A stretch of DNA of 64,000 nucleotides from Terriglobia bacterium (GCA_963664115.2 CAXWPJ010000012.1:512001-576000), one strand, 5' to 3'; shown: positions 2,040 through 62,984, counted from the stretch's first letter. The notes: generated from the letters alone by a model not told the origin. Made by a program: numbers and translations.

Positions 2040-2079
2040 TTCTCAACGTCCGAGAAGATGATTTCTCAGGACTTGAGAA
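2040..2079 (+). repeat. 40-bp dif-like array site, intact
   Basis: TTCTCAACGTCCGAGAAGATGATTTCTCAGGACTTGAGAA. Confidence 0.95.
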
Positions 2080-2140
2080 CTACATTTCTCATAATAGCCG
2101 GTTAAACGGCCAGCGCAACTGCTGGACTGGACACCCTGGT

Positions 2141-2509
2141 TTAGTCAGCCAGTTGGACGAGCTGCAGTTCATTCCCGGACGGGTCCTTAAGGGTCGCTAG
2201 CCACCCGCCCCAATGCTGCTGCTCTGGTTCGCCAGAAAACTGAACGTCAAGAGCTGACAGCTGTTGATGCTTTGACCTAATGTCACCGACCGCAAACGAT
2301 ACTCCCGTGAAGCGACCAACCAATACTTGCTCATCTTGCGGTGCGTCTTTTGCCACGGCCTCGATAACGAGCTGGGGACCGCCAGCATTTAAGATACAGA
2401 CGCCATGATCGAGATCTTTCGTCTCCAGCGTAAGGCCTAATTGGTCAACGTAAAAGCGTTCGGCTTCCGCAACATCATTAACAAATATTCGCACTGCGCT
2501 GAGATTCAT
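2141..2509 (-). CDS. VOC/glyoxalase family protein (single-gene interval)
   Basis: VRIFVNDVAEAERFY...DPSGNELQL motifs; only gene between the sites at 2040 and 2582. Confidence 0.9.
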   Translation of the reverse strand: MNLSAVRIFVNDVAEAERFYVDQLGLTLETKDLDHGVCILNAGGPQLVIEAVAKDAPQDEQVLVGRFTGVSFAVGDIRSKHQQLSALDVQFSGEPEQQHWGGWLATLKDPSGNELQLVQLAD

Positions 2510-2581
2510 ATGCTCTCTCTATATGATGGACTTACCTGCCTATCAGGGTGCAGTCGTCTTGTCCCTGGCCGAAAATGTGAA

Positions 2582-2621
2582 ATCTCAACGTCCGACAAGA
2601 TGATTTCTCAGGACTTGAGAT
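2582..2621 (+). repeat. 40-bp dif-like array site, intact
   Basis: ATCTCAACGTCCGACAAGATGATTTCTCAGGACTTGAGAT. Confidence 0.95.
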
Positions 2622-3342
2622 CTGTCTTTGCAAGGGCGTGCCTGGCGTATATTTCACTCTGGGTCTGGAAAGACTCGGACGGTCCGCTCAGCGAAAGACT
2701 CTTGCCTCATCATGTGAATCACCAATTGGTTGTAACGGTCGTTCGGCGCCACCGTTTCAGCGAATTGTGAAGCCACGTCCACAACACTCTCTATGAAAGT
2801 GCGTGCGAAATACATCGACCATCCACCGTAACCCATTTTCCAGCTGTGTCGTGAAGCTCTGGTACCCGTCAGCTATGCCGGACATCGAACCCCATAAACG
2901 TCATTATGTGAATATTGCACATGGGGTTTGAATTACCTATCATCGTCAGCGGGAAGATAGGCAACCGGCTCGTGACGTTCAGCCTCCCCGAGGTGTTTTG
3001 ATTTCGGATGGCGGCGACCGGGGCGGACGAGTGCGCTGTTGACGCGAGCGTTGGGGTGCCTCGCTGCGCCCCGCGCACCAGCGCTGTGAGGATGACGCTC
3101 ACGTAGCCATTTCATGAGAGCCTCCGCGTCGAGGGCCCAGACGTGGTCGTCGTCCTCCTGAAGAGCGCCCCCGACTAGGGCTCAACCTATCCCTGGATTC
3201 GGACCACCGCAGGCTACTAAACAGGGCCGCGCGGACATGGGATGATCACACAAGACGTGCGACCCGAGCCGCGATGAGCGCCGGGCGCTGATAGAGTTGC
3301 AGTGCGTTGTGTGTGAAACTACAATCATTTTGGGGAGGCATC

Positions 3343-3837
3343 ATGTCTACAACGATCCGGTTTCTTTCGACGCTGGGGTGTGTGTGCGCCTTGGCAGTTC
3401 CAGCCGCGGCGCAGCTTACCGTCCGCAGGGATCTTTCCTATGCCATGGCCAGGACTGTTGCGGACACCACGATGGCGCGTTGTCTAACGGAGAACCTACA
3501 GGTTTCGATTCACGTCATAGACAGTAGCGGCGACACGATTGTTGCCTTGCGCGGAGACGGCGCGCGGCCGTTCACCTTCGAGAACAGCTACGAAAAGGCC
3601 TTTACGGCGATGGCGTTCCGCCGCCCCAGCGCCGAGATGCAGGCCGAGTATGTAGAAGGCAACATGACCCGTGCGCAGCAGGCCGATTTTCCGCATGTGG
3701 TGATGATCGGCGGTGGGATGCCGATTATCGCTGATGGCGAAGTGGTCGGTGGTGTCGGGATTTCGGGTGCGGCAAGCACAGCAACCGATGTCTGCGTGCA
3801 AGCCGGAATCGACGCGGTCGCCGCGCAGCTACGCTAG
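3343..3837 (+). CDS. GlcG/HbpS-like heme-binding protein
   Basis: Signal peptide; KAFTA and GGMPIIADGEVVGGVGISGA motifs; GGAGG RBS before ATG 3343. Confidence 0.85.
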   Translation: MSTTIRFLSTLGCVCALAVPAAAQLTVRRDLSYAMARTVADTTMARCLTENLQVSIHVIDSSGDTIVALRGDGARPFTFENSYEKAFTAMAFRRPSAEMQAEYVEGNMTRAQQADFPHVVMIGGGMPIIADGEVVGGVGISGAASTATDVCVQAGIDAVAAQLR

Positions 3838-3869
3838 CGCTGGCCGCTTCAGGCGGGGCCTACTGCTTC

Positions 3870-3971
3870 CGCGCGACGGCCTGCGGCCGCGCGCGGATTG
3901 ACATAACACCCATACGGCGACACTGCCAGGGCTGCCATAGGTGCCGGACCCTGCTTGTTCCGCTTATCCGC
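3870..3971 (+). repeat. Family-2 repeat with XerD-like arm (copy A)
   Basis: Similar to 31058-31133, 31934-32035 and inverted 55476-55546; minus strand reads GTGTCGCCGTA-TGGGTG-TTATGTCAATC. Confidence 0.8.
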
Positions 3972-4395
3972 GCCGGACCTTCACATTGGCCGGTTTTAGG
4001 TCTCGATGGATGATCCCTTGCTCGTGTGCGGCCTCAAGGGCCTCGGCGATCTGTTTCGCAATAGGCAGAGCTTCATCAACGGGAATCGGCCCTTGTGTAA
4101 TACGGTCGGCGAGGGTCGGCCCCTCGACCAACTCCATCACGAGGGCGTGGACGCTGGTGGATTTTTCAAAGCCGTATATCTGGGCGATGTTCGGATGGTT
4201 CAACGTCGCCAGGGTTTTGGCTTCACGCTCAAACCTTGCGAGACGATCCTCATCCTTCGCAAACTCTTCAGGCAGCGTCTTGATGGCGACTTCGCGCCCA
4301 AGTTTCGTATCCCGCACACGCCACACTTCTCCCATGCCACCCTTACCTAAGAGCGTTGAGATCTCGTAGCGGCCGAGTTTGGTGCCGGATTCCAT
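3964..4395 (-). pseudogene. N-terminal fragment of a Hanks-type Ser/Thr protein kinase
   Basis: LGKGGMGEV, VAIK and HRDLKPAN motifs; ends before DFG, at the family-2 repeat. Confidence 0.9.
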
Positions 4396-4496: not shown

Positions 4497-4536
4497 TTCT
4501 CAACGTCCGAGAAGATGATTTCTCAGGACTTGAGAA
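4497..4536 (+). repeat. 40-bp dif-like array site, intact
   Basis: Identical to the site at 2040. Confidence 0.95.
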
Positions 4537-4556
4537 TCATGTTCACGGTTGAAGGC

Positions 4557-5168
4557 TCAGAGCCCTTTCGTCATTCGATAGAACTTCAATCCCGGTATAG
4601 CCAATCTCTTCGGCCACTGCGACTCGACGTTCATCCCGCGGCGCTCGTAGAATCGGCAAGCTCCCGCATTCCTAGCTGAAACGTCGAGGGATAGTCGAGT
4701 CGATCCGCTCGCACGAGCCCGATCTTCAACGAAGTCCATCAAGACGGAGCCGACGCCATCGCCGCGAAGTTCCTTATCAACAGCGATGGCTTGGAGGTAG
4801 AAATCGCCATCGGCGATTGAATCGACAATCCGCATGATTGGAGCAAACAGTATCTCTACGGTCCTCATTTGTAGATTGAATCTTCCGGCAGCCCGCTTCA
4901 GGGGTTGGCGCGAAGAACGGCGATGCTGCTCCGCGGTGTACACGCAGACTGTTCCCACGATGACGTCGTCACGTTCTGCGAAAGTCACATTTTGGTAGGA
5001 GAGGTCGTGGTCGGGCTGGGCGAACGCCGTGGCGACTATTTGCTCGGCGCGGCGACCGAGCCAAAAACGAAAGAATCCCTCGGCTGCTTGGTCAAGGTAG
5101 CGAGCAAATGCCAGACCTTCATCGAACGTGGGTTTGGCGGCCCTTAAGACTATCGAATGCCGATCCAT
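4557..5168 (-). CDS. GNAT family N-acetyltransferase (single-gene interval)
   Basis: YLQAIAVDKELRGDGVGS acetyl-CoA motif and N..A.RFYER.G; fills the interval between two sites. Confidence 0.9.
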   Translation of the reverse strand: MDRHSIVLRAAKPTFDEGLAFARYLDQAAEGFFRFWLGRRAEQIVATAFAQPDHDLSYQNVTFAERDDVIVGTVCVYTAEQHRRSSRQPLKRAAGRFNLQMRTVEILFAPIMRIVDSIADGDFYLQAIAVDKELRGDGVGSVLMDFVEDRARASGSTRLSLDVSARNAGACRFYERRGMNVESQWPKRLAIPGLKFYRMTKGL

Positions 5169-5211
5169 ATCGTCCTTCTACGCCGAACATGGTAGTAGGC
5201 CGTGCATCCAA

Positions 5212-5251
5212 TTCTCAACGTCCGAGAAGATGATTTATCAGGACTTGACCT
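5212..5251 (+). repeat. 40-bp dif-like array site, intact
   Basis: TTCTCAACGTCCGAGAAGATGATTTATCAGGACTTGACCT, followed by kinase-tail remnant HWFEEPKERGPVP* on the minus strand. Confidence 0.95.
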
Positions 5252-23631: not shown

Positions 23632-23634
23632 CCA

Positions 23635-30924: not shown

Positions 30925-30943
30925 TGATTTATCAGGACTTGAC
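30925..30943 (+). repeat. Array site, right half, abutting the IS30 end
   Basis: TGATTTATCAGGACTTGAC. Confidence 0.9.
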
Positions 30944-31057
30944 CCGTCATCTCTGTCTCCGCCAACTTCCCCGAAGCCGACTTCTGGGTCTCTAATACCG
31001 ACCATTCCTAAACACAAGGCGACTAGGGAGGAGTAATCGGGTGTTCTGCTTCGTGCC

Positions 31058-32035: not shown

Positions 32036-32175
32036 CTCGCAGCCCTCCGAGAGTTAAACCTCGACAAACGCCGTTTCGTTTACCGATCCAAATTCAACGT
32101 CCCAGAAGTCGGCTTCTGGCAACCAGTTCTAGCTTTGGAACGAGTGGATTGGAAGCAATGATTGAATCAGCGGGA

Positions 32176-32215
32176 TTCTCAACGTCCGAGAAGATGATTT
32201 GTCAGGACTTGAGAC
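32176..32215 (+). repeat. 40-bp dif-like array site, intact
   Basis: TTCTCAACGTCCGAGAAGATGATTTGTCAGGACTTGAGAC. Confidence 0.95.
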
Positions 32216-34531: not shown

Positions 34532-34571
34532 CTCTCAATTTCCGACAAGATGATTTCTCAGGACTTGACCG
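34532..34571 (+). repeat. 40-bp dif-like array site, intact variant
   Basis: CTCTCAATTTCCGACAAGATGATTTCTCAGGACTTGACCG, followed by a kinase-tail remnant. Confidence 0.9.
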
Positions 34572-35145: not shown

Positions 35146-35166
35146 TCCTCAACGTCCGAGAAGATG
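35146..35166 (+). repeat. Array site, left half (split by IS30)
   Basis: TCCTCAACGTCCGAGAAGATG; right half at 36419. Confidence 0.9.
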
Positions 35167-36415
35167 ATTCAGATCAACCGGTCGATGCAACACCTGCGTT
35201 TAATGTCTCTGCCGGATTAGCGAAGTCCAGCGTCTCACGAGGTCGCCCGTTGAGCTTCCTTGCGATCATATCCAAATGCTCCTGTGAGTGAACCGACAAG
35301 TCCGTACCTTTAGGGAAATACTGTCGGAGCAAACCGTTCGTGTTTTCGTTCGAACCCCGTTGCCAGGGACTCCTCGGATCGCAAAAGTAAACGGCAATGT
35401 CGGTGGCCAGAGTGAACCGTTTGTGATTGGCCATTTCCAATCCGCGATCCCAGGTCAGTGTTTTATAGAGTTCGGTCGGGAGTTTGTCTGCGTGTTCGAT
35501 CAGCGCGTTGATGACGGTTTCGGTTTCCTTATTCGGAACCTTCACCCGCATCACGTACCGGGAGAAACGTTCGACCAATGTCGCAATGTAGGTGTTGTTC
35601 GAACCCGCTATGAGATCCCCTTCCCAGTGTCCGGGGACCGCGCGATCTTCAACCGAAGCCGGGCGCTCACGGATCGATATCAGATCCGGGATCTGCCCGC
35701 CACCCCGGCCTTTGCGACTGGCATGCTGGGACCGGCGAATCGTGCGTTTGGTCCGTAGATGCTGTGTCAGTTCTTTCTTCAGAGCCCCGCGGGCCTGGAT
35801 GAAAAGGCTGCGATAGATCGTTTCGTGTGACACGTAAAGTGACTCGTCGTCTGGATATTCGCGTTTCAGCCAACCCGCAATCTGTCGCGGTGCCCAATCC
35901 TCCCGGAGCTTCTCTTCGACGATCCCGCGTAAGCTGGGATAGCGGATCAGTCGACATCTCTTCGGGCGGTGAGCCCGTTCCCATGCGCGTTCATCCGCCT
36001 CCAACGCTCGATAGTTATCATAGCCCCCATTGCGACCGATCTCCCGACTGACTGTGGAGGGTGTACGCGACAGCGACTCGGCAATTGAACGGATCGATCC
36101 CTTGGCGGCAATGCCTCGGGAAATCTCTTCACGCTCGGCGAGGGTCAGCGCCCGCTTAGAGCGGCATCGTGTCCTGGGACAGATTCCACCATACGGTGCG
36201 ATCTGACCATAAACCGAAGAGCCCTCCTTTCCGAACACACGTCCGATCGCTTTCAGACTCTCTCCCCGCTGCCAGCGAATCCACACCTCGTCTATATCGG
36301 CGAGTGTGTAGCCTCGCCGCACCCGGTCTTTACTCTGTTTCTTCCGTCGTTTCTTACGCATACACTCCACCTCCTCCTTTTAGGTACAGTGTTGCATCGA
36401 TCTGTTGAGACCACC
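35167..36415 (-). mobile_element. IS30-family IS (transposase 35174-36370)
   Basis: GHWEGDL, TWDRGLE and WQRGSNENTNGLLRQYFPK motifs; imperfect 27-bp terminal IRs. Confidence 0.95.
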
Positions 36416-36418
36416 TCG

Positions 36419-36436
36419 TTTCTCAGGACTTGACCT
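36419..36436 (+). repeat. Array site, right half (split by IS30)
   Basis: TTTCTCAGGACTTGACCT. Confidence 0.9.
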
Positions 36437-36712: not shown

Positions 36713-36752
36713 TTCTCAAGGTCCGAGAAGATGATTTCTCAGGACTTGAGAA
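36713..36752 (+). repeat. 40-bp dif-like array site, intact
   Basis: TTCTCAAGGTCCGAGAAGATGATTTCTCAGGACTTGAGAA. Confidence 0.95.
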
Positions 36753-40658: not shown

Positions 40659-40695
40659 TTCTCAACTTCCGACAAGATTTATCAGGACTTGAGAA
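40659..40695 (+). repeat. Array site with a 3-nt deletion in the core
   Basis: TTCTCAACTTCCGACAA-GAT-TTATCAGGACTTGAGAA. Confidence 0.9.
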
Positions 40696-41058: not shown

Positions 41059-41098
41059 TTCTCAACGTCCGAGAAGATGATTTGTCAGGACTTGACCC
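41059..41098 (+). repeat. 40-bp dif-like array site, intact
   Basis: TTCTCAACGTCCGAGAAGATGATTTGTCAGGACTTGACCC, then ELKERVPVP* remnant. Confidence 0.95.
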
Positions 41099-44654: not shown

Positions 44655-46027
44655 CACGTGAGTGTGAACAAAAAGGAGTCCGAGATGAAGAATAAGACGA
44701 TTGCAGTCGATCTGGCAAAGAATGTTTTTCAAATTGGTGTTTCAGATCGCCCCGGGCATGTAGAGAAAACCTATCGTTTAAGTCGGGCAAAGTTTCTGGG
44801 GTTCTTTGCGAACCAGGAGCTGGCGACCGTGGTGATGGAAGCCTGCGGATCCGCCCATTACTGGGGCCGGAAGATCCGGGAACTGGGACACACGGTCGTT
44901 CTGATCTCGCCGCAGTATGTGACGCCCTACGTCAGGCGCAACAAGACCGACCGTACGGATGTGAAGGGATTGTTGGAAGCCTATCGCGACAGCGATATTC
45001 ATCCGGTCCCGATCAAGACGCTGGCCCAACAGCAACTGACCTCATTGCATCGAATCCGTTCGGCGTGGATGCGAACCCGAACCGCACGGATCAATACGGT
45101 GCGGGGGTTGTTACGGGAGTTTGGCTACGTGATCCCGACCGGAGCGGATCATCTGGTGCCGGGGGTAATGGAGCTGATCGAAGATGCAGATGTCGTCATC
45201 CCCAGTGTCGTTCGGGAGATGTTTCACCAGGTGTGTGGCGAGATCCGTGAATTGGAATCTCGCATGCGATCGGTGGAACAAGAGTTGAAGACGCTGGCTC
45301 GGCAGATGCCTGAGGTCGCGCGTCTGACGTCGATTCCCGGCATCGGCCTGTTAACGGCAACGGCAATGGTGGGGTTTGTTGAAAACATCAAACGATTCCG
45401 AACGTCCCGCCATTTTGCCAGTTATCTGGGACTCACACCCCGGGAACATTCCAGTGGCAACCAGCGACGCATGGGCCGGATCAGTAAGCAAGGCGATCGT
45501 TACCTCCGGATGCTGTTGGTTCATGGGGGCCGTTCCCTGTTGTGGAGTGCCCATCGAGAGGGCGCCACACCGACACCTCTCCAGCAATGGGGTCTCCAGA
45601 AACACGAGTTCCGCGGACACAACAAGGCAATCGTTGCACTGGCCAACAAGTTGGCGCGTCGCGTGTGGGCGGTTTGGAACCGTGACTGTGACCATCAGGC
45701 CCGGTATCAGGCGGCCTGACCCGGAACAGTCGGAATATCTTTTCAGCGAGCTGCGATGAGGTTCGAGATGATGGCGTACCGGTCAGACCGGCGCGGGGCA
45801 ACGCCGACAAGTCCTTTGGCCCTTAGAGGCCGTTATTTTATCGGTTGGCTCCCCGCGCGCAAATTTCCATCATGGCCCGGAACAATACAGTTCCACTTTT
45901 GAGGCCGAAGATACGGGTGCAGTCGACTAGCTACTCACCTCGTAACTTCTAGTCAGTCCTGCTGAATGCATTTTGCCGAAGAAAGCTGACGGGAGAGCTG
46001 CGCCTACTTGACAGAGGAGTCCAGATA
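44655..46027 (+). mobile_element. IS110-family (IS1111-type) element, left end lost; transposase 44685-45719
   Basis: AVDLAKNVFQ, MEACGSAHYW, KTDRTD and SSG motifs; 300-bp 3' noncoding region ending GGAGTCCAGATA. Confidence 0.9.
45760..45930 (+). ncRNA. Candidate bridge/seek RNA of the IS1111-type element (limits approximate)
   Basis: Stem GCGCGGGG/CCCCGCGC enclosing CAAGTCCT (reverse complement of array-site AGGACTTG); second hairpin contains AGATAC, matching the IS end junction. Confidence 0.6.
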
Positions 46028-46038
46028 CAGGACTTGAG
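46028..46038 (+). repeat. Array site, right part, abutting the IS110 end
   Basis: CAGGACTTGAG. Confidence 0.8.
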
Positions 46039-46099
46039 CGGTTAGATCATCTACCGTGCGGACTGACTTCCCGTAGTCCAGTTCTAGGAATTGTCTCGG

Positions 46100-47041
46100 T
46101 CACGACTCTATCGCGAAGTCCATCCCCAATAAGCTCTCGCGCAGGAGAGCAGTGTCGCCAATATCATCGCCATATAGGACACCAATGACGGCGGCGTGGA
46201 GAGCACGAAATCGCGCCATGATTTGGATCGGCTTTTCGACCGCTCCATAGCTATCCCAAAATACTTCGCGACCCTCGGGTGGCAGAAAACCGAACGCAAT
46301 AGCCAAATCCATACTGGGGCTTCCTAGGTGGATGTCGCCCCAGTCAATCACGCCGCTTGGCAGTCCAAAGTTGTCCACAAGGATATGCTCCGCTGAAAAA
46401 TCGCCGTGTGACAATGTGTTCAACCGCGGTTGAAAGTCCGATGACATCTGTTCAACGATCCGTTCCCAAGGTGAAACGTCAGCAACCAATCCCTTTCCTC
46501 GAATCGTCAGAAGACTTGAGAGCAACTGTGGAATACGTTTTCCCATGTCAGCTCGGCCAAATTTATCTCCCGGAATTTCCAGATCTCCCGGATCAATGGC
46601 ATGTAGAGTTGCTAAGAAATTCGCTAAGGGAGCAGCAAGTTCCTTCCTCTGCTCTCGCGTCAATCCAACACTCAGTGCCGTGGTGCCTGGAAGAAAGCGA
46701 TAGCCCGCAAACGGCCAATCATACTCTTGTGTTGGCTTACCAACCCATCTTGGTACTGGGATAGGGAAAGGCAACTGAGCTGCAATTCGAGGAAGGACGC
46801 GAGTTTCCGTCTGCAGCAGTTCCACCGCTATCTCTCGGCGAGGAAACCGGAAAACCCAAGTCCTGTTCACTACGTAGGCCGTATTGTCCCAACCCTCACC
46901 TAGAAGTTGGATATGCGCAGGTCGAAGCTCCGGGAATTGGCTTTCGATCAGACGAACGGCCGCATCTGGCATCACGATATGCTCAGGTAGCCAAGGTTTA
47001 CCGGTAGGCATTACTGAAGAGAGTACCAGTCTGGAGTTCAA
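46100..47041 (-). CDS. Aminoglycoside phosphotransferase-like kinase (start probably 47011 or 46972)
   Basis: GEGWDN, VFRFPR, HGDFSAEHIL and IDWGD motifs; single-gene interval. Confidence 0.9.
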   Translation of the reverse strand: MNSRLVLSSVMPTGKPWLPEHIVMPDAAVRLIESQFPELRPAHIQLLGEGWDNTAYVVNRTWVFRFPRREIAVELLQTETRVLPRIAAQLPFPIPVPRWVGKPTQEYDWPFAGYRFLPGTTALSVGLTREQRKELAAPLANFLATLHAIDPGDLEIPGDKFGRADMGKRIPQLLSSLLTIRGKGLVADVSPWERIVEQMSSDFQPRLNTLSHGDFSAEHILVDNFGLPSGVIDWGDIHLGSPSMDLAIAFGFLPPEGREVFWDSYGAVEKPIQIMARFRALHAAVIGVLYGDDIGDTALLRESLLGMDFAIES

Positions 47042-47074
47042 CGTCCGAGAAGATGATTTCTCGGGACTTGAGAA
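47035..47074 (+). repeat. 40-bp dif-like array site, intact
   Basis: AGTTCAACGTCCGAGAAGATGATTTCTCGGGACTTGAGAA. Confidence 0.95.
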
Positions 47075-47697: not shown

Positions 47698-47737
47698 TTC
47701 TCAAGGTCCGCGAAGATGATTTCTCGGAACTTGACCT
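47698..47737 (+). repeat. 40-bp dif-like array site, variant
   Basis: TTCTCAAGGTCCGCGAAGATGATTTCTCGGAACTTGACCT, then INIVLNWFEELKDRVPVP* remnant. Confidence 0.9.
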
Positions 47738-48445: not shown

Positions 48446-48485
48446 TTCTCAATGTCCGAGAAGATGATTTCTCGGGACTTGACAC
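48446..48485 (+). repeat. 40-bp dif-like array site, intact
   Basis: TTCTCAATGTCCGAGAAGATGATTTCTCGGGACTTGACAC. Confidence 0.95.
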
Positions 48486-48563
48486 CGCCGTCATCGCAAG
48501 TGCCAAGCGTTGAAACGAAGAAATGCAGATAGGATGGTACGGTTTCTCAGCCGGAGCATCGCC

Positions 48564-49109
48564 GTGGCACTGACCGCAACCATCTACACCTTCTCTATCG
48601 AGCTGGCCGACGCTGATCGCGGGGTCTACGAGACGCTCGAACTCCGCCTCGCCCGCCATCCGTCGGAAACAGAGGACTATCTGGTCACACGCGTACTCGG
48701 GTACTGCCTGGCCTATGAGGAAGGCATCAGCTTCTCGAAGGGACTCCCCGACTCGGAAGAACCCCCCATCACGGTGCGCGACCTGACTGGCGCTCTGCGG
48801 GTGTGGATCGACATCGGGGCGCCCGCCGCGGCGCGTCTGCACAGGGCGAGCAAGGCCGCCCCCCGCGTTGTGGTCTTCACGCACAGGGATCCCGTGCGGC
48901 TCGTCCGCCAGTGGTCCGGCGAACGAATTCACCGCGCAGCGGAACTGGAGCTGTACAGTTTCGATCGAACGCTGATCGCCGCGATCGTGGCTCGACTGAA
49001 GCGTCGGATGTCGCTTGGGTTGTCGGTGACCGGAGGACATCTGTACGTCGCAATCGACGACGAGTCAGTGGATGGAGTCGTGGAGCAGCACGCACTTCCT
49101 ACGGAGTAA
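48564..49109 (+). CDS. yaeQ: YaeQ family protein
   Basis: ALTATIY, ARHPSET and FSKGL...WIDIG.P motifs. Confidence 0.9.
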   Translation: MALTATIYTFSIELADADRGVYETLELRLARHPSETEDYLVTRVLGYCLAYEEGISFSKGLPDSEEPPITVRDLTGALRVWIDIGAPAAARLHRASKAAPRVVVFTHRDPVRLVRQWSGERIHRAAELELYSFDRTLIAAIVARLKRRMSLGLSVTGGHLYVAIDDESVDGVVEQHALPTE

Positions 49110-49313
49110 TGTGCAGAGCCCCGACGAAATCGTCATGGAAGCGCTGTCAAGTTAAGCTGACTGGTGGCGTTTTGGCCCCCCTCCACCACTTCTAACTTGC
49201 GTACTGAGTCTGAAAGGCAAGAGTTAGAGGCAATGAGCGGGTCAAGTGCTGCCAAACGACCTTCCCGTCATCTGACCAACGCGCCTTGTTTCGGCCATTT
49301 GCCAAATGACGCC

Positions 49314-49338
49314 AAGATGATTTATCAGGACTTGAACT
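49314..49338 (+). repeat. Array site, core plus right arm only
   Basis: AAGATGATTTATCAGGACTTGAACT, followed by a degenerate kinase tail. Confidence 0.85.
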
Positions 49339-49468: not shown

Positions 49469-50317
49469 ATGAAATTCGGGATTTCGATTTTTGATACCGA
49501 TTATGCGATCCGGATCGACGAGGTGGCGCACGCAGTCGAAGAACGCGGTTTTGAGTCACTCTGGGTCCCGGAGCACACTCACATCCCCAAGAGCCGCCGG
49601 AGTCCCTGGCCCGGCGGGGCCGAGCTACCTAAAGAGTACTGGCACACGCATGATCCTTTTGTATCGCTCGCCGTAGCGGCTGCTGCCACAACCCGGCTGA
49701 AGATCGCTACCGGGGTCTGCCTAGTTGTGGAGCGCGACCCGATCACATTGGCGAAGGAGGTGGCAAGTCTGGATTTCCTCTCCGGCGGCCGGTTCATCTT
49801 TGGGATAGGCGGCGGCTGGAATGCGGAGGAGATGGAAAACCATGGCACGGACTTCGGGAAACGATGGCACGTCCTCCGCGAGCGGATCCTGGCCATGAAG
49901 GAAATTTGGATGAACGAGGAAGCAGAATTCCACGGCGAGTTCGTCAACTTCGAGCCGATCTGGTCCTACCCTAAGCCTGTCCAGAAGCCCCATCCACCAA
50001 TACTCTTGGGCGTTAACAAGCCTGCGGGGCGCCAGCATGTTGTCGACTACTGCGACGGTTGGCTCCCGCTAGCCGCACGAGCAGGCCGCTTGTCCGACGG
50101 CATCGTGGACCTGCGACAGAGAGCGGAGAAGGCCGACCGGGATGCGGCAACACTCTCGGTATCCGTGTACGGTGCCAGGCCTGACAAGGCCGCGGTTGAG
50201 GAATACGTGGCTGCGGGCGCCGAGCGTATTATCTTCACGCTGCCCGCGGCCGACCGCGATACCGTGCTGCCGATTTTGGATAATTGGAGGAAGCTGATTC
50301 AGGAACACGCGGGGTAA
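49469..50317 (+). CDS. LLM-class (F420-dependent-type) oxidoreductase
   Basis: GFESLWVPEH, LAKEVASLDFLSGGR and PKPVQKPHPP motifs. Confidence 0.9.
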   Translation: MKFGISIFDTDYAIRIDEVAHAVEERGFESLWVPEHTHIPKSRRSPWPGGAELPKEYWHTHDPFVSLAVAAAATTRLKIATGVCLVVERDPITLAKEVASLDFLSGGRFIFGIGGGWNAEEMENHGTDFGKRWHVLRERILAMKEIWMNEEAEFHGEFVNFEPIWSYPKPVQKPHPPILLGVNKPAGRQHVVDYCDGWLPLAARAGRLSDGIVDLRQRAEKADRDAATLSVSVYGARPDKAAVEEYVAAGAERIIFTLPAADRDTVLPILDNWRKLIQEHAG

Positions 50318-51802: not shown

Positions 51803-51815
51803 ATGTCAACGTCCG
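51803..51815 (+). repeat. Array site, left part (split by group II intron)
   Basis: ATGTCAACGTCCG. Confidence 0.85.
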
Positions 51816-52490
51816 GTCGAGTAGACCCGGGGAATTTCACCCCGAGTCCCTCACAGAACCGTGCTTGAACCTCTCGATTCACACGGCTCTTGCCAGCCGT
51901 TCGCCGACCACCTCACGGTGGGGGGCCGACACCCGATGAATCCGGCTCCTCCCGCTTGCGCGGTTGGCCAGTTCCAAAGAGCGAGCTGGCTCATCCCCTT
52001 CGCTCCCCTCCCATTACAAGAGGTTCATCACTACTACAGGATGATCCGCCCCTGAACTCCGCATCCGTACTCTCGCCCTCGTGGTTCTGGCCACTTGTGG
52101 CTTCTCCGTTAGCATCGAAGTTCAGGTTCCCACGTTCCGCTCAACCGCCTCTTGGTAAGCTCAGGCCACCTCTCATGCCGGAGGCCACTCCGCCCGTAAA
52201 CAGGTTCCGTCGGAGCTCGTCCCGCAGTATCTTCTCCCTGCGGTTTTGGCCATCGTCTTTAAATTTTCGACACTTCAACAGTGGTTCCCTTTCGGTCCTC
52301 TTCTTACCAGTCACCTGACCCAGTCATCGCCGGGCCTTTTCCTTCTGCGCTCACGACCATGGCTTTTGACCACAGCCGCCAGAGGTGGTTTGAAACCGAC
52401 GCCTGTACGCCGGCTCCGAGGGGCCCTCCCTCATCAGTTGAGTAGTTACGCACTCGATGACCTTGCGGCCCCCGAGCACTCGTGGCACAC
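51816..52490 (-). ncRNA. ORF-less group II intron (675 nt)
   Basis: 5' GUGUG; domain V GAGCCGUGUGAAUCGAGAGGUUCAAGCACGGUUC; domain VI ending ...CUACUCGAC; removing it restores an array site. Confidence 0.92.
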
Positions 52491-52517
52491 AGAAGATGAT
52501 TTATCGGGACTTGACCT
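52491..52517 (+). repeat. Array site, right part (split by group II intron)
   Basis: AGAAGATGATTTATCGGGACTTGACCT. Confidence 0.9.
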
Positions 52518-55659: not shown

Positions 55660-56083
55660 CATTAAAGTGTGTCGCTGGAAATACCGAGAAAAACTCTGCA
55701 AAGGATACTAAGGGAGGAAGTTAGGCGCTATTAAATTCTCAGGTCAAACGTTAGATTCTTATCGGGAGTAACCCGGCGAGAGGCGAGGGGGACAAGTGGT
55801 GATGAATGACCGGGTTACTTTCGATGAGGGCGTTTGAAGGAAGCCGCCCACAGGTCAGGCGGCTATGTAGTTTGAAAGCGGTTTCGGGTATCGACGACGT
55901 GGAGGTGGACCGAGTAAGCGCCCCGGTTGAAACCAAAAGGTCGGTTTGAAGCTGGGGATTTGAGACTCACCGTATCTGAGAATGATGACTGAAACACTGT
56001 TGTCGTGGTGAATTTGGGCAACCAGACGCACGTCGGCTGAACGTGCCCGAGCACGTCGCCAGTTCCAATGGAATGGGGGGGTG

Positions 56084-57265
56084 TCAGGAAGAATCGAATC
56101 CCCTCCTTTCAAGTGGCCACCGGATCTGGGCCGCGGTGAGCCGCTCCCCGATCGTCATGGCCGCGCCGCAGTTGGGACAGCGCCAGGAGTTGGGGCGTGC
56201 ATCGGTCGATCGTTCAGATGTCTGAGTCGCAGTAGCACCTCCTAACCAATGCCGGCACAAAGGCAGCAGTGAACCACGATGGCGGGCTGAGAGAAAACCA
56301 AAGAACCGGATGCGGACGAAGCGGCGCGGCAAGGTGTGGGTGAGAAAGCGGATGAGAAACTGTTCAGCCGGAAGCGTCATGTTGCGGGGTGCGTGCTTGT
56401 GCCGGGAGTCTTTCCAGCGAAACGTAACCTGACCGTCCTGGAGATCGACGAGGCGGTGGTTGGAGATGGCGACCCGATGTGTGTAACGGGCCAGATAGTG
56501 GAGTACGTGTTTGGGCCCGCCGAATGGACGCTTGGAGTAGACGACCCAGTCGATGTGATGGAGCGGGCCGATAAAGGCCGCGAATCGTTTCGGGTCGTTT
56601 AATGGGGCCAGATCGCCATAGAAACGTAGCTCTCCCCGCTTGAACGATCGCCGAAGCCGGTCCAGAAACTTACCCCGAAACACTTCACTGAGCACCTTCA
56701 CTGGAAGGAAGAACCGATGGCGGGCCCGAATCCATCGGGTGTGGTCGCCCGACAGGCCACCGGCAGGAACGACACAATGGATGTGGGGATGATGACCCAG
56801 CGTCTGACTCCAGGTATGGAGCACGCTGAGCACGCCAATCTGGGCGCCCAGATGTTTCCCGTTGGCGGCCACTTCCTGCAACGTGGCCGCGCTGGCCCCA
56901 AACAGCAGGGCATAGATCACACGTTTGTTCTGATAAGCCAACCGCGCCAGGGGTTGGGGCAGGGTGAAAACGACATGCACGTAGCGAGTCGGCAGTAACT
57001 CCCCGGTGCGATCCGTCACCCACTGGTCACGGGCACGGGTCTGACACTTCGGGCAATGCCGATTGCGGCACGAGTTGTAGGAGAGGGCGCGATAGTCGCA
57101 GTTCGATTCCGAGCATCGGTCCCGGTGGCCTCCCAGCGCCGCGGTGCGACACTGCTGAATAGAGTTGAGGACGCGCAACTGACCGCCATCGAGCCGGCGA
57201 TGCGCCACCAGGTCGGAACCATGACGACGGATGATGTCGGCCACCTCAAGGGTGGGCCGGGTCAC
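56084..57265 (-). CDS. IS91-family (Y2/HUH) transposase with zinc-binding domain
   Basis: YNSCRNRHCPKC, HVVFTLP, HPHIH and YLARYTHR motifs. Confidence 0.95.
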   Translation of the reverse strand: MTRPTLEVADIIRRHGSDLVAHRRLDGGQLRVLNSIQQCRTAALGGHRDRCSESNCDYRALSYNSCRNRHCPKCQTRARDQWVTDRTGELLPTRYVHVVFTLPQPLARLAYQNKRVIYALLFGASAATLQEVAANGKHLGAQIGVLSVLHTWSQTLGHHPHIHCVVPAGGLSGDHTRWIRARHRFFLPVKVLSEVFRGKFLDRLRRSFKRGELRFYGDLAPLNDPKRFAAFIGPLHHIDWVVYSKRPFGGPKHVLHYLARYTHRVAISNHRLVDLQDGQVTFRWKDSRHKHAPRNMTLPAEQFLIRFLTHTLPRRFVRIRFFGFLSARHRGSLLPLCRHWLGGATATQTSERSTDARPNSWRCPNCGAAMTIGERLTAAQIRWPLERRGFDSS

Positions 57266-58146
57266 CGCAACCCGACTTCGCTTGAATCCAATAGCGGGAT
57301 CTGATCCAGCGGATTCTTTATGGCCTGTAAGTGCCGGTTCGACAGATGCAGATACAGCGTGGTGTGCTTCAGGTCAGCGTGGCCCAACAGGAGTTGAATC
57401 GTGTAGAGATCGGTCCCGTCTTCCAACAGGTGCGTTGCGTAGCTGTGTCGCAGGCTGTGAGGTGAGATCCGCTTGCGGAGAATCGCGCGCTCACGCGCTT
57501 CCCGGCAAGCGCGCCACACCATCTTCGTGGAGATCGGTGCATCGACCCGACGGCGCCGTTTCATGCCCGGAAACAGGTAGGTCTTCGGCTTCATCCAGCG
57601 CGCGTACTGGCGCAATGTCTCCAGTAGTCGTGGACTCAGCGGCACGGCCCGGTCCCGTCCGCGTTTCCCACCCCGGATCTGAATCACCATCCGTGCGCTG
57701 TCGATGTCCTCTATTTTGAGGCACACCAGTTCACCGCGACGCATCCCGGTGCCGTAGAGCGTCATCAGCATCGCCCGCTGCATCAACGTGCGACACCCAT
57801 CGATCAATCGGGCCACTTCCCCACGAGAGAGCACGACCGGCAATCGCCGATCCTGTTTCGGCATCGGTGTGTGTTCGAGCAGATAGGTCCGATTCAGTGT
57901 CTTAACGAAGAAGAAGCGTAATGCCGAGACGTGTTGCGCCACTGTCCGGGCCGACAACCCCCGATCTCGAAACAGGTGCACCTGGTACTGCCGGATCTCG
58001 TCGGCTCCCAATCGGTCCGGCGCTCGGCGGAAATGTCGGGCAAAGTTCCCCAGGATTCTCAGGTAGGTCTGTACCGTTCTCGGAGCGTAATTACGTCGCT
58101 GGAGCTCGTCCAGCATCAACCTGCGGTTGGGCGTCATTCGGATCAT
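57262..58146 (-). CDS. Tyrosine recombinase with N-terminal SAM-like domain, coupled to the IS91 transposase
   Basis: YGTGMR, HSLRHSYATH and LLGH...TTLY catalytic motifs; 4-bp overlap with the transposase. Confidence 0.95.
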   Translation of the reverse strand: MIRMTPNRRLMLDELQRRNYAPRTVQTYLRILGNFARHFRRAPDRLGADEIRQYQVHLFRDRGLSARTVAQHVSALRFFFVKTLNRTYLLEHTPMPKQDRRLPVVLSRGEVARLIDGCRTLMQRAMLMTLYGTGMRRGELVCLKIEDIDSARMVIQIRGGKRGRDRAVPLSPRLLETLRQYARWMKPKTYLFPGMKRRRRVDAPISTKMVWRACREARERAILRKRISPHSLRHSYATHLLEDGTDLYTIQLLLGHADLKHTTLYLHLSNRHLQAIKNPLDQIPLLDSSEVGLR

Positions 58147-58256
58147 AGAGATATCCCTCCTGTATCTCTACAACCCGATACCCTCCCTCAGTCAGGCCCG
58201 GTCCTTCACCACGCACGCAAAGCGTCCGCCGCGCCAGCGGCTTAGTTCAAACGACA

Positions 58257-58273
58257 TTGTCGGACGTTGAGAA
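58257..58273 (-). repeat. Inverted left arm of the array site
   Basis: Reverse complement TTCTCAACGTCCGACAA. Confidence 0.85.
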
Positions 58274-58292: not shown

Positions 58293-58332
58293 TTCTCAAG
58301 GTCCGAGAAGATGATTTATCAGGACTTGAACT
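58293..58332 (+). repeat. 40-bp dif-like array site, intact
   Basis: TTCTCAAGGTCCGAGAAGATGATTTATCAGGACTTGAACT, then INIVLKWFEELKERVPMP* remnant. Confidence 0.95.
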
Positions 58333-58480: not shown

Positions 58481-59608
58481 CTAACGAGCCGGATCACGGA
58501 CTACGTTGCGCAGGTCCTCGTACGTTCCGACATCGCCATGAATGCCAACGATTGTTTGCACGTTCAAATTCAATGCCTCGATGCCTTCGAGGAGCTCGCG
58601 CGGCAACTCGCCCGGCCGTATGCTCCCCCCCTCGCGAGGGCTGACATGGTCCGCCTCGATCAGAATGCGTTCTCCTGGAAGATAAATGATCTGGTAATCG
58701 TCCGCGTGCGATGTCGCATATGGGTAAATTTCAATTTGTCGGCTCCCGTCGGTCAGGATCTTCGGTTCCGTGATCCCTTCGACGACGGCTGCATCCCGGC
58801 TCTGTTCCAAACGCTCCGCCCGGATGGTGTGCGGTGCTCTGGCGATGCGCTCATAGTGTGCTGCACTGATCGCCGGCGCGACAATCGTTGCCCCCGCTTC
58901 CGTGTATGTCCGTATGCCGCCTGAGTGATCGTTGTGGAAATGGGTTGGAATAACGTAGCGGATCGGCTTCGTTGGAAAGCGCTGTCTGATCGCCGCGAGA
59001 ACGCTTTCTGAACGCTCTTCATAGAGCGGCGCCTCAACGACCACAAGATGGTCCTGAAACTCGATGAGCACGCTGTTGTGCGACGTTCCCCGGATATGAA
59101 TGACGCCGTCGGCGAGCGGCACGAACTCCACCGGTATGTCCCTGCCAAAATCCAGGTAGCTGACATTCATCGCCAGACGGCGCAAGAGCCATTGCGAGGG
59201 GATCGGCTCTCCTTCGATGTCTTGACGCCGTAGGGCCTCAGGCACCAGGAACGTTTCGGGCGAGAGCTCAACATTGTGGCGCACGGACTGGAGGCGTTCG
59301 CTCTGAAGCAGTTTCCCGTTGATTTCATGTCGCAGGTCGAAAGGCACCATGATGCCATCCACAGACTGCCAGTCTGCGTAACGCAGGGTGTACCGGCTAT
59401 CCCCGTAGATGGGGTCGTGTTCGAGGATGTCGACTTGTGTAAGGAGCTTAGTCCGGACATCCAGGTAGATTTGAAATTCCTCACCGTCGTTGTCAAAGCT
59501 CAGGACGCGCTGTGGCAGCCCCTCCACTTCGGTATCGGGGAGCCGCGTCAGGCTCGCCCGTCCCAGCGCCGTGAGCACGAGGGCATTGGCTGAACGCTGT
59601 TCTTCCCG
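58481..59608 (-). pseudogene. MBL-fold metallo-hydrolase, 5'-truncated by IS
   Basis: THFHNDHSGG motif. Confidence 0.85.
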
Positions 59609-61098
59609 TGTAGCCCGTCAGAGCATTTCGCACAGAATCCGCTGAAAAACTAAGAGACACTTTTCTAATCAGAACGATCTGAAGGAGGATCGAATGAGTG
59701 AGAAAGTGTCGGCAGAGAATCGGGTACGGGAGATTCGTCGGAAGACGAGGAAGAAGTACTCGTCGGAAGAGAAAGTGCGGATTGTGTTGGAAGGACTGCG
59801 AGGTGAAGAGAGCATCGCAGCGCTGTGCCGACGCGAAGGGATTCCGTCAAATCTGTATTACCGGTGGAGCAAGGACTTCCTGGAGGCGGGGAAGAAACGG
59901 CTGGCTGGGGACACGAAGCGGGAAGCGACATCGAGCGAAGTCACTGAATTACGCCAGGAGAACGAACAGCTGAAGCAGGTGGTAGCTGAAATACTGCTAA
60001 AGAATCGTTTTCTGAAAAAAACGTTGAACGTAACGGACTCCGAGAGCATCGATATATGAGGCAATCGGGATCTGAGAAGCTGGAGACGATCCGAGTGGTG
60101 GAAGACTCGGAGTTGTCGGTGACAGCGACCCTCCGGGAGCTGGGCGTCCCCCGCAGCACGTTCTACGGTTGGTATCGACGATACAAAGAGCGTGGCGCAG
60201 CCGGCTTGTTAGATCGGCATTCCGGCCCCGGCTTCTGCTGGAACCGGATTCCGGGACCGGTGCGGGAACAGGTGGTCGAAACCGCGTTGAACCACCCGGA
60301 AGCCTCACCGCGGGAACTGGCCTGGCAGATCACCGACACCCAGGACTACTTCATCTCCGAATCCAGCGTGTATCGGATTCTGAAGAGATGCGACCTGATC
60401 ACCAGTCCCGCATACATCGTGATGACGGCCAGCGATCACTTCCAGCAGCCAACCCGGCGTGTGAACGAACTCTGGCAAACTGATTTCACTTACTTCAGGG
60501 TCGTCGGTTGGGGTTGGTACTACCTGTCGACCGTGCTGGACGATTACTCTCGCTACATCATCGCCTGGAAGCTCTTTCAAACCATGGCCGCATCTGACGT
60601 TCAGGACACGCTGGACGTTGCACTACAGGCGACAGATGTCGGACAAGTACAAGTCCGGCACCGACCGCGATTGTTGAGCGACAACGGCCCCTGCTACGTA
60701 TCGCACGAACTCAAAGACTATTTACAACGTCGTGGTATGGAACACACCCGGGGTGCGCCCTATCACCCGATGACACAGGGCAAGATCGAACGCTATCACC
60801 GTTCGATGAAGAACGTGGTCAAGTTGGAACACTACTATTATCCGTGGGAACTTGAGCAGGCGATCGCGCAATGGGTCGAACACTACAACCACCATCGGTA
60901 TCACGAATCTCTGAACAACGTGACACCGGCTGACGTGTTCTTCGGGAGGGATCAGCAGATCCTTGCACGTCGTGACCAGATCAAAAGAAAAACGCTGGCT
61001 CGACGCAAAATCGAGAACCTTAGGATTGGAGTGGTATAACTTCAAAACCGTCTCTTAGCTAAATGGTCTTTTTGTCCGAATTATTCTGACGACGTACA
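59609..61098 (+). mobile_element. IS3-family IS, full copy 4
   Basis: Same ends; orfA 59694-60059, orfB 60056-61039. Confidence 0.95.
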
Positions 61099-62190
61099 GT
61101 GCACCCCTACGGAGTTGCCATAGATGCTGCTGGAAATATCATAGTAGGCGATGTAGGCAATGCAGGCACAGGTAGCATCATAAGTGTGAATCCGGCTACC
61201 GGCGTCCAGAATCTCATTTCCTTTAATGGGTGGATTGATGCTCCAGTGGCTGTAGCGATAGATGCCTCCGGCGACATCATCGTGGGAGATGTCGCAACCC
61301 ACGCCATCATCAGGGTAAACCCGTTGACCGGCGCCCAGGAGCTCATCACCGGGGGTATCGCTAATCCTTCGGGTATAGCCATTGACACCTCCGGTCACAT
61401 CATTGCGACTAACAACACCGAAATAATCAGTGTGAATCCAGTCACGGGCGCCCAAACGGTCCTCCCTATTCCCGCGGCTGGGTCATTATTCGTCAATCTC
61501 GAAGGTGTAGCCATAGATGGCGCTGGTAATCTTATCGTTGGCAACGGGGGCGTTTCGGGCACCCTGCCTCGCATCATCAGTGTGAATCCAGTCACGGGCG
61601 CCCAAACGGTGATTTCTTCGAATCCATGCTGTGCAACACAGGGTAACCACTTCTGGAATCCCTTTGGTGTCGCGATTGACGCCGCCGGAGATATCATCGT
61701 TTCCGATTGGAGCTCTAATAAAATCGTAAAGGTGGATCCTGTTAGCGGTGTCCAAACGCTGATTTCTTCTGGTGGTGTATTTAATGATCCCTTGGGCATA
61801 GCCATCGTCCCCCCTCTCGTGGAGACCGTCGTGACCATCGACATCAAGCCGGGAACTGATCAAAATTCCATCAATCTCAAGAGCAAAGGTGTGATCGCCG
61901 TCGCCATACTTTCGGAAGGTGATTTCGATGCGGTTGCAGAGATAACCCCTGAAAATGTTTCAGGAATCCTCTTTGGTCCGAGTGAAGCTTCCCCAGCGCA
62001 CGACCCTGCGGGCCATGTGGGAGATGTTGACGGTGACGGCGATGTGGACGTTGTACTGCATTACCGAACCCAGGAAACCGGAATCAGCGACGGAGACGAC
62101 GAAGCGTGTATTTCCGTCAGTGGCGAGATATTGGCCTGCGATTCGATCCTCATCACACCCGGCAGTAGCAAGGGTGGGGGCAGAAGGTAG
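61099..62190 (+). pseudogene. NHL-like beta-propeller protein, 5'-truncated by IS
   Basis: PxGVAIDAAGxIIV...VNPVTGAQ repeats; C-terminal IDIKPG...DVDGDGD domain. Confidence 0.8.
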
Positions 62191-62212
62191 TACTCAACTA
62201 ATTCTGATCGAA

Positions 62213-62241
62213 GAGGCTCGTCCATGTGGCGGGCCTTTTTT
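62213..62241 (+). terminator. Intrinsic terminator
   Basis: AGGCTCGTC-CATGT-GGCGGGCCT hairpin followed by a T-tract. Confidence 0.65.
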
Positions 62242-62441
62242 CTTGTGTCTCCTGGCCCCTAAAGACCGCAACTCGACTCGTCCACCATCACCAACCACGA
62301 AAAAGATCTCGTAACGGCCTAATTTGGTGCCGGGTTCCATGTTTAAAGTGTGACGCTAAGTGGAACAGCGAAATTCTGGTAAGTCTATCTACATGGGAGG
62401 GATATTGGCAAGGAAAGGGTCAACTCCCGAAACTTGGCAAA

Positions 62442-62481
62442 TTCTCAACGTCCGGGAAGATGATTTCTCAGGACTTGAGAA
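62442..62481 (+). repeat. 40-bp dif-like array site, intact
   Basis: TTCTCAACGTCCGGGAAGATGATTTCTCAGGACTTGAGAA. Confidence 0.95.
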
Positions 62482-62551
62482 TCATTTTCATGGTCATTTA
62501 GGGCACCGGCACAACACAAGTTTTCTCTCAGGCGCGCAATTGTACGTGGAC

Positions 62552-62887
62552 TCACGAGACAATCGGTCGGGGATCGAAGAATGCCCTAACTTCGACGATG
62601 CTACCATTCGAGACCCGAAAGTAGTCACACACCTCGATCACTTCGCCGGCGGCAACAAACTGGAAGAGGACGCACGCGTGCTCCCCCTGCACAATCTGTT
62701 GCTTGACTCGAATGTCGGTCATTTGATGGGCTACCTGAGTAAGAGTTTCGACCACAACTGCTCTCCCTACCAACTGCTCTAACACCGGTCCGTCGAACGG
62801 GATGCGTGAAGTTGTTGGTACATGCGTGAAGTTGTTGGCCTGAAGACCCTCAATATATCGAACGGCGCATTCTGCTGTGTTTGACAC
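62552..62887 (-). CDS. SnoaL/NTF2-like protein (single-gene interval)
   Basis: VCDYFRVSNGSIVEVRAFFDPR C-terminus. Confidence 0.75.
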   Translation of the reverse strand: MSNTAECAVRYIEGLQANNFTHVPTTSRIPFDGPVLEQLVGRAVVVETLTQVAHQMTDIRVKQQIVQGEHACVLFQFVAAGEVIEVCDYFRVSNGSIVEVRAFFDPRPIVS

Positions 62888-62944
62888 TCGGTGGCATCCT
62901 CCGAAGTAAAAGCGTCAAGAGCTTGGTACAACCCAACCGTGCAA

Positions 62945-62984
62945 TTCTCAACGTCCGGGAAGATGATTTGTCAGGACTTGAGAA
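62945..62984 (+). repeat. 40-bp dif-like array site, intact
   Basis: TTCTCAACGTCCGGGAAGATGATTTGTCAGGACTTGAGAA. Confidence 0.95.

Follow-up and report, generated by a model that had tools for sequence, protein, structure and literature searches.

A dif-like palindrome brackets mobile gene blocks in Terriglobia, with host XerC/XerD as candidate drivers of chromosomal cassette exchange

We analyzed a 64,000-nucleotide stretch of the genome of a Terriglobia bacterium (GCA_963664115.2, CAXWPJ010000012.1:512001-576000; hereafter the window), in which an original prediction, made from the sequence alone, had recognized an integron-like gene-cassette array punctuated by a 40-bp dif-like site. We found that this site is a dif-like palindrome that brackets gene blocks across the source genome, that it exists in several spacer classes with characteristic relative orientations, that flanking DNA has been exchanged at it, and that the blocks it brackets are shared between species. 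That some site-specific recombinase acts on the site is, in our judgment, highly probable. We further propose, as a reading with about an even chance of being right, that host XerC/XerD drive a chromosomal exchange of cassettes at these sites.

A short dif-like site with orientation-bound spacer classes

The source genome (G000) is a 4.89-Mb metagenome assembly of 12 contigs (C1 to C12), which we compared with the genomes of its relatives (G001 to G004 and others). Using a profile built from 14 window copies at a score threshold of 18, where the best score in shuffled sequence was 12, we obtained 189 matches in G000 and none in two shuffled genomes. A profile restricted to the arms of the site identified 177 non-overlapping intact sites and an additional 59 half-site loci. 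As 9 of 218 sites of the main spacer class (type A, defined below) pooled from three genomes were duplicates with both flanks in common, and as some contig ends overlap, the true count is slightly below 177. The sites of G000 form 35 clusters (8 of them singletons) on 9 of the 12 contigs, spanning 647 kb, and array DNA accounts for ~13% of the chromosome. A genome-wide scan had been expected to find clustered, co-oriented copies; clustering was observed, as was co-orientation of neighboring A sites, but the copies are genome-wide and lie on both strands of these contigs. The window is also not the single array it had been taken for, as it contains a site-free stretch (5251-30925) and holds parts of one genome cluster. 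Support was likewise lacking for a single integron-like array in which a recombinase gene sits at one end, given the 35 clusters and a cargo survey of 256 representative open reading frames (ORFs) from 20 loci, covering ~370 of the 647 kb of array DNA, in which no conserved recombinase was present.

The conserved part of the site is shorter than the 40 bp first described. Conservation defines a 34-bp core with sharp TCAA/TTGA ends, positions 38-40 on the right being only ~45% conserved, and the inner 28 bp form an 11-6-11 dyad, in which two 11-bp arms surround a 6-bp spacer in the layout of a dif site. This layout and the lack of covariation between paired positions support the prediction that the site is dif-like and not an attC. 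No Rfam model matched it.

By their spacers, the 177 sites comprise 138 of type A (GATGAT), 24 of type B (TGTCGT or GGTCGT) and 15 others. Neighboring A sites are direct repeats in 84 of 90 cases (p=1e-18) and inverted in 6, whereas A-B neighbors are inverted in 36 of 38 (p=5e-9). The contrast drawn earlier with the inverted pdif sites of Acinetobacter consequently holds for A-A neighbors but not for the system as a whole, in which pdif-like inverted pairs are also present. A third class (C), with spacer GCCGAC, had been overlooked; its dyads are arranged in inverted pairs placed immediately inside A sites, such as the pair 30965/32097. Further C-class inverted pairs, nested in A-A units and enclosing 1.1-2.2 kb, were observed at G000:C2:755318-757257, C2:330178-332392 and C5:204627-206451.

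An inverted partner lies close to the left arm of 19 of the 138 A sites and close to the right arm of one, with none in shuffled sequence. The 21 left-arm partners listed stand at distances of 17-45 or 108 bp, and the close ones carry B-like spacers even though the spacer was not scored. Five of six back-to-back A/B junctions fold into a dif-like duplex with a central bubble, and within B spacers the 3 bp beside the right arm are better kept than the other 3 bp. Five sites lack exactly 3 bp of GATGAT (window position 40659; G000:C2:255640, 757864 and 1000416; C9:1129194), a loss that is either slippage or the scar of an element.

At all 20 positions originally listed in the window, we found the motif on the plus strand. 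The copy at 40659, called intact, is the one in the window that lacks 3 bp of its spacer, and the supposed lone right half at 49314 belongs to a degenerate full site that starts at 49299. The remaining right halves abut ends of insertion sequences (ISs), that at 30925 an IS30 end and that at 46028, which starts at 46027, an IS110 end. Both halves of the two split copies are present, and they are separated by insertions of an IS30 element (35167-36415) and an ORF-less group II intron (51816-52490). The listed copies do share one orientation, but opposite-strand copies with a different spacer, at 49239-49278 and 58249-58273, had been missed.

Searching with a free spacer, we recovered 160, 115, 64, 18 and 5 sites from five genomes of the genus, 1-6 sites from four of five genomes of a second genus, none from 25 genomes of the rest of the family and none from 400 other genomes across the phylum. 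All 18 copies in G001 lie on its main contig. Six JGI metagenome contigs carry the site, two of them with a partial or full back-to-back B site. A search for carriers found no site in IMG/VR and none in PLSDB, where the 61-base query was a weak one. A unit carrying an APH-like phosphotransferase gene recurs almost unchanged in sponge metagenomes, and the habitat is therefore likely marine and sponge-linked.

Exchange of gene blocks at the site

To compare flanks we used the 218 pooled A sites minus the 9 duplicates, and we scored a flank as shared where at least 100 bp were at least 90% identical. The left flank alone was in common in 15 site pairs and the right flank alone in 10, with identity stopping 0-13 bp beyond the site. 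The prediction that site-bounded blocks have moved is borne out by units that recur with other neighbors and whose homology ends at the site. Within G000, the GNAT unit at 4497-5212 recurs at C2:319911 (90.6%) and the unit at 36713-40659 recurs at C10:212438-217780 in two pieces around an IS (99.7% and 97.4%), both with other neighbors, and copies of the APH-like unit on C6 and C11 (99.6%) have another neighbor on the right. A 1255-bp unit is common to C2 and C6, and a 355-bp unit to C10 and C11.

Blocks are also shared with other species. In G001, which represents another species, the GNAT unit (90%) belongs to a six-site array, where it is enclosed by A sites spaced 715 bp apart and has another neighbor on the left. 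A 97% identical YaeQ gene follows a CAGGAT-spacer site with another left flank, its unit beginning at the right arm. For the luciferase-like monooxygenase unit, homology extends from the right arm onward (93% in G001, 91% in G004). An island at 1.23 Mb on C9 is absent in G001, where its core flanks abut, and its B-kinase-A module is found elsewhere in G001 and G004 at 93-95% identity, versus 81-87% for core genes. Overall, cargo at scattered positions is 90-98% identical between species with core genes 78-87% identical. When G000 was compared with loci fetched from relatives, none of the 138 sites had a site-less allele. The arms are kept while the spacer turns over (CCGGAT in G004, other spacers in G001 too). 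Variable positions are linked in four of six left-arm pairs and in none of 12 pairs across the spacer, a pattern that lends weak support because right-side pairs were also unlinked (0 of 3). As the genome is a metagenome assembly, some of the duplicate contexts may represent different strains, in which case the breakpoints still lie at sites. Two multi-unit blocks of 7-8 kb (G000:C11:2636-9528 and 55471-63536) are duplicated on C6 at 99.9%, with one end each at a site; these duplicates reflect either block movement or strain haplotypes.

In the mechanism that we propose, a Xer-type recombinase would swap blocks by crossover in the 6-bp spacer, with same-spacer sites as the presumed compatible partners. 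An A-site block could integrate at any resident A site, which would regenerate a direct repeat and let the array grow, and one block or several would be reshuffled when arrays exchange with each other or with DNA entering the cell. The inverted B and C sites would constitute separate compatibility groups, as in Acinetobacter pdif modules, and divergence from true dif would keep the reaction rare and allow the direct repeats to persist. Back-to-back A/B pairs may permit CTX-like single-strand entry. Several arrays are in or beside islands where a tRNA gene is accompanied by an integrase, complete or as a remnant (G000:C9:1225750, C2:189498, C10:203347, C5:285097), which suggests that such islands are how founder sites arrive.

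Host recombinases and alternative explanations

We compared the site with the dif of the host, a single canonical intact copy at G000:C2:108118-108145 that lies ~16 kb from the nearest array site; a canonical dif match was found in 40 of 61 genomes searched, mostly once. The left arm matches that of host dif at 7-8 of 11 positions in 102 of 138 A sites, and the left-arm consensus agrees at 9 of 11 positions with two published Acidobacteria dif left arms (PMC3025954). Across G000, G002, G003 and G004 (comparison loci: 21 in G002, 12 in G003, 8 in G004), the only tyrosine recombinases that are more than 75% identical are XerC and XerD, and a profile search of G000 for this enzyme class added only fragments and weak matches. 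From these sequence comparisons we put the chance that the acting recombinase is host XerC/XerD at roughly one half. In G000 the host dif is 42 kb from xerD, and both fall within ~60 kb in G001, G003, G004, G007 and G017 too.

Several observations weigh against exchange by XerC/XerD. The right arm matches the XerD arm of host dif at only 5-6 of 11 positions in 125 of 138 sites, the inner ATAA is missing on the left arm (T there in 0%), TTAT is present on the right in 29 of 138, and conservation reaches 3 bp past the 28-bp dif footprint on both sides. Recognition of the inner segment is a task of the N-terminal domains (PMC7399989), and the ATAA/TTAT motif has been tied to XerCD binding and cutting, a diverged site being poorly recognized (PMC11705084); the divergent XerD arm of TLCphi is still usable (PMC5357621). 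In an alignment of 28 of 29 XerD and 21 of 30 XerC loci, the remainder of which failed a motif filter, XerC and XerD had no telling change relative to site-less sister genera. In the four closest genera, site-bearing and site-less alike, the recognition helix of XerD is mostly R-G/A-G-F/C-W, the Arg not being followed by Gln (L139-L167); E. coli has RQ at the corresponding position.

Other difficulties concern the exchange itself. In PMC11705084, no excision occurred between directly repeated xrs, which argues against simple circle excision by XerCD and for exchange between molecules. The circular one-site cassette would be a putative intermediate; no circle was observed in public sequencing runs, in which short-word contigs break at each site. 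Depth differences between units, and a unit left uncovered in one run, do not count as evidence. In pairs whose shared flanks diverge by 1-2%, the arm on the shared side still differs, position 15 doing so in 4 of 10 pairs and position 26 in 3 of 5, so that conversion or branch migration would be required besides a spacer crossover. Most cargo matches examined in G001 and G004 stop away from any detectable site, the GNAT gene lacks a site in G007, and the model gives no account of how a new gene first gains its sites.

Tentatively, the arrays could instead represent a system independent of integrons and of chromosome-dimer resolution by the host, with a 34-bp site, its own recombinase, several spacer-defined groups and dozens of arrays trading between species, old enough to have acquired its own guild of parasites. 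Its enzyme, by a possible but doubtful account, would be a dedicated recombinase with a longer footprint (~14 bp per arm), encoded outside the arrays or on an unassembled helper element. The 34-bp core with its sharp ends, the exclusion of the dif base at the inner left position and the restriction of the site to two genera are consistent with such an enzyme, as is one phage-type integrase family found in G000, G002 and G003 at 47-70% identity, though not among 8 G004 loci. However, this family is ~390 kb from the nearest site in G000, the 256 ORFs surveyed in ~370 of the 647 kb of array DNA include no conserved recombinase, and the site was found in neither IMG/VR nor PLSDB. We rejected as a candidate a solo 316-aa tyrosine recombinase (G000:C5:52059-53270), which was not found in G002, G003 or G004 and has homologs in site-less genera; its gene has a B site on either side, both facing outward and both running into the start of a kinase gene. 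Serine resolvase matches occur in all five genomes.

Single-stranded entry in the style of CTX phage, in which a folded A/B pair would have one strand exchanged into an A site and replication would complete the process, is compatible with the XerC/XerD proposal and in our view unlikely. The inverted left partners of 19 A sites, the five folding junctions and the 3 bp preferentially kept next to the right arm in B spacers fit this route, the order A-cargo-B-linker-A is its predicted product, and CTX has two inverted dif-like sites 90 bp apart (PMC4246890, PMC3089051). Nevertheless, the predicted right-arm agreement between B sites and their far A partners was absent (p=0.70), and the left-arm agreement that we did observe is not specific to this route because it was found in both geometries (p=0.014 and 0.0065). 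Moreover, most A sites have no B partner, and no phage or rolling-circle replication genes except IS91 transposases were found among the 256 ORFs from ~370 of the 647 kb of array DNA.

It is improbable that the site binds a non-recombinase protein, or is a relic, and that homologous recombination or gene conversion across its 34 bp shuffles the blocks. The arm mismatches on the shared side would point to variable crossover positions, and the genome is rich in IS copies that rearrange DNA, but this explanation fails to account for the orientation-bound spacer classes, the conservation of the arms during spacer turnover or the likeness to dif arms.

Very unlikely is recombination of the site as a hairpin by IntI or by the integrase of an IS91-like element. 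The site does fold with two bulged bases, a true IntI exists in G000, and each of the 8 IS91-like copies whose left end is visible is in or at most ~250 bp from a site, whereas regions within 300 bp of a site make up 2.9% of the genome. Yet no covariation links the paired positions 15 and 26 (p=0.48, or p=0.79 once further genomes are included), and the base expected to belong to GTT is variable (C53/G20/T25%), its partner reading CTT. The distributions do not match that of the site, which led us to reject both enzymes and largely refutes this explanation: G003 has 64 sites with no match to a Y2 transposase and no IntI-like match seen, and G001 has 18 sites with 35 transposase matches. IntI has its own canonical attC and is ~195 kb from the nearest site. 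This ordinary integron (G000:C9:711173-715800) has an IntI above the TIGR02249 cut-off, a canonical 94-nucleotide attC ~3.4 kb away (C9:711173) and several genes downstream of intI that are co-oriented with it; IntI is at C9:715 kb and the nearest site at C9:911 kb. A heuristic attC scan of five of the 12 contigs and the IntI region found none in the window and one beside IntI.

Insertion between genes of a selfish repetitive extragenic palindromic (REP) element, REPIN or miniature inverted-repeat transposable element (MITE) is extremely unlikely: REPs and REPINs, which are associated with RAYT genes, are likewise short palindromes between genes, some in inverted doublets, and the genus does have RAYT-like genes, but the reading is already contradicted by the 0 of 138 empty alleles and by RAYT loci that are not flanked by sites (none at four of six loci in five genomes, one each at two), and singleton sites are well conserved and co-oriented. 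We rejected RAYT as the site enzyme on the same ground, and the exchange of flanks at the site further distinguishes it from REPs.

Related systems, inserted elements and cargo

In its working the site system resembles a cross between pdif modules and integron arrays, but it departs from the attC definition, from the pdif consensus and orientation, and from integration at dif in the manner of integrative mobile elements exploiting Xer (IMEXs). Its nearest known counterparts are the pdif/xrs modules of Acinetobacter and the IMEXs of Vibrio. Like the modules bounded by pdif or xrs sites (10.1101/2022.12.17.520857; PMC12907356; PMC11705084), it has 11-6-11 dif-like sites apart from the main dif that bracket one or a few accessory genes, modules without a recombinase, spacer classes, islands, targeting by ISs, and the same module in different site-bounded contexts. 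Unlike them, with their near-consensus arms, alternating inverted orientation and 22 chromosomal sites in an Acinetobacter strain (PMC12907356), the Terriglobia genome has 177 sites, most of which are direct repeats with the same spacer; their right arm is divergent, the inner ATAA is missing and 3-bp extensions are conserved, and no plasmid carrier of the site was found. The IMEXs of Vibrio cholerae (CTXphi, VGJphi, TLCphi; PMC4246890, PMC5357621, PMC3089051) share with it dif-like attachment sites, the lack of a recombinase of their own and tandem build-up; TLCphi resembles it in its divergent XerD arm, and CTXphi has two inverted sites ~90 bp apart that resemble the A/B junctions. In contrast, IMEXs are phages that enter the chromosomal dif, whereas in the Terriglobia blocks no phage or replication genes were found, the sites form 35 clusters and the host dif is intact.

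Integrons likewise have small accessory genes (GNAT, VOC, APH-like, SnoaL) in co-oriented arrays, blocks common to different arrays, and colonization by IS110-family elements and group II introns. The site differs from attC in being short, conserved in sequence and without RYYYAAC/GTTRRRY boxes or covariation, and there is no IntI or attI at the arrays. In the literature searched, which left most subscription papers and bioRxiv supplements out of scope, there was no description of the site or of direct-repeat dif-like arrays in Acidobacteriota. The known gene-capture platforms are integrons, with their attC sites, and the inverted pdif modules of Acinetobacter; direct-repeat arrays of this kind would escape searches based on attC or on the dif consensus. 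If host XerC/XerD acts, hijacking of Xer can give rise to integron-like arrays at a distance from the terminus and on a consensus-breaking site, and the hundreds of site variants in three spacer classes would constitute a natural test set for the movement of Xer-bounded modules. Any other enzyme would form with the site a new recombinase-site pair. The arrays also offer a way in which eukaryote-like kinase genes and repeat-protein genes could have expanded in these bacteria.

The site is the nearly exclusive insertion target of an IS30 element, two IS110-type elements and a group II intron. Every matched IS30 end (13 left, 8 right) adjoins a half-site at the dyad center, 7 of 8 left ends of the first IS110 follow the left arm and spacer, the second IS110-like element is at sites at 7 of 7 and 8 of 8 ends, and the ORF-less group II intron is at sites in 3 of 3 cases; as controls, 1 of 58 IS256 end matches and 0 of 9 for IS481 were in a site. 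This guild of elements suggests that the site is long-lived and protein-bound or structured. By comparison, attC sites attract the same kinds of element, IS110-family members and group II introns (PMC9229058), and xrs sites attract IS1202-family elements (10.1101/2022.12.17.520857). The 675-bp ORF-less intron occupies the same left-arm position in its three copies (window 51816-52490; G000:C12:16.4-17.0 kb and 19.5-20.2 kb), and a maturase-encoding intron is present at L108:5208-6530. The spacer halves flanking the IS30 copy at 35146-36436 differ, the left one being A-type and the right one B-type, which looks like recombination between two insertions.

A further element combines an integrase with an IS91 transposase (window 55746-58248; G000:C1:92.9-95.4 kb). 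IS91-linked integrases of this kind are described as an integron-like subgroup (10.1101/542381). A circle-like joint of its ends folds, on the bottom strand, into a long attC-like hairpin with paired outer boxes, its copies insert after GTT or ATT, and it may be a self-mobile integron-like cassette. The remnant of the B site that it splits in the window leads into a kinase start.

Table 1. Sites, inserted elements and genes in the window.
Feature	Coordinates	Strand	Evidence
Type A site (GATGAT), perfect 40-bp form	2040..2079	+	
VOC/glyoxalase gene, only cargo of unit 2040-2582	2141..2509	-	Pfam
Type A site	2582..2621	+	
Ser/Thr kinase gene, 5' stub starting off left arm of site 4497	3964..4395	-	
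Type A site	4497..4536	+	
GNAT gene, unit 4497-5212	4557..5168	-	Pfam
Type A site, followed by kinase 3' stub	5212..5251	+	
Polysaccharide-locus fragments (epimerase, glycosyltransferase, methyltransferase, ABC exporter) between IS481-like copies, in site-free gap	21034-30823		
Right half of A site at IS30 end	30925..30945	+	
C dyad, spacer GCCGAC, inverted partner 32097	30965..30992	+	
C dyad, spacer GTCGGC	32097..32124	+	
Type A site	32176..32215	+	
Type A site	34532..34571	+	
Site split at dyad center by IS30 (35167-36415; transposase 35174-36370, -)	35146..36436	+	
Type A site, opens unit 36713-40659	36713..36752	+	
Type A site with 3-bp spacer deletion	40659..40695	+	
Type A site, followed by short kinase 3' stub	41059..41098	+	
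IS110 element (transposase 44658-45719), ends in right arm of site (46027-46040)	44658..46040	+	
APH-like phosphotransferase ORF	46100..47041	-	Pfam
Type A site	47035..47074	+	
Type A site	47698..47737	+	
Type A site	48446..48485	+	
YaeQ gene	48510..49109	+	Pfam
Degenerate type B site (GGTCGT), 20 bp from left arm of site 49299	49239..49278	-	
Degenerate type A site	49299..49338	+	
Luciferase-like monooxygenase gene	49469..50317	+	
Site split in left arm by ORF-less group II intron (51816-52490, -)	51803..52517	+	
Type B site split by 2.5-kb element (55746-58248): tyrosine recombinase 57262-58146, IS91 transposase 56084-57265	55736..58273	-	
Type A site, 19 bp from left arm of split B site	58293..58332	+	
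Type A site	62442..62481	+	
SnoaL-like/DUF4904 gene, only cargo of unit 62442-62945	62552..62887	-	Pfam
Type A site; cluster runs on past window to C12:583240	62945..62984	+	

The cargo genes named originally were partly confirmed, as Pfam identified the VOC, GNAT, APH-like, YaeQ and SnoaL-like genes, but the putative Zn microprotein and the 97-aa ORF had no Pfam match. Genes had been described as lying mostly opposite to the site, and genome-wide the longest ORF is indeed antiparallel to it in 26 of 35 short direct units, many units being longer. The commonest neighbor of the sites is a Ser/Thr kinase-PD40 gene: its 3' stub lies on the right of 55 of 146 A-class sites and on the left of one, its start follows 16 of 31 B-class sites, and two copies are intact (905 aa) and have A sites on both sides. 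This kinase module looks like the founder cargo. The remaining cargo among the 256 surveyed ORFs includes 17 DUF6152 and 9 metallo-beta-lactamase-fold proteins, together with GNAT, VOC, hydrolase, NHL, FG-GAP and TPR proteins.

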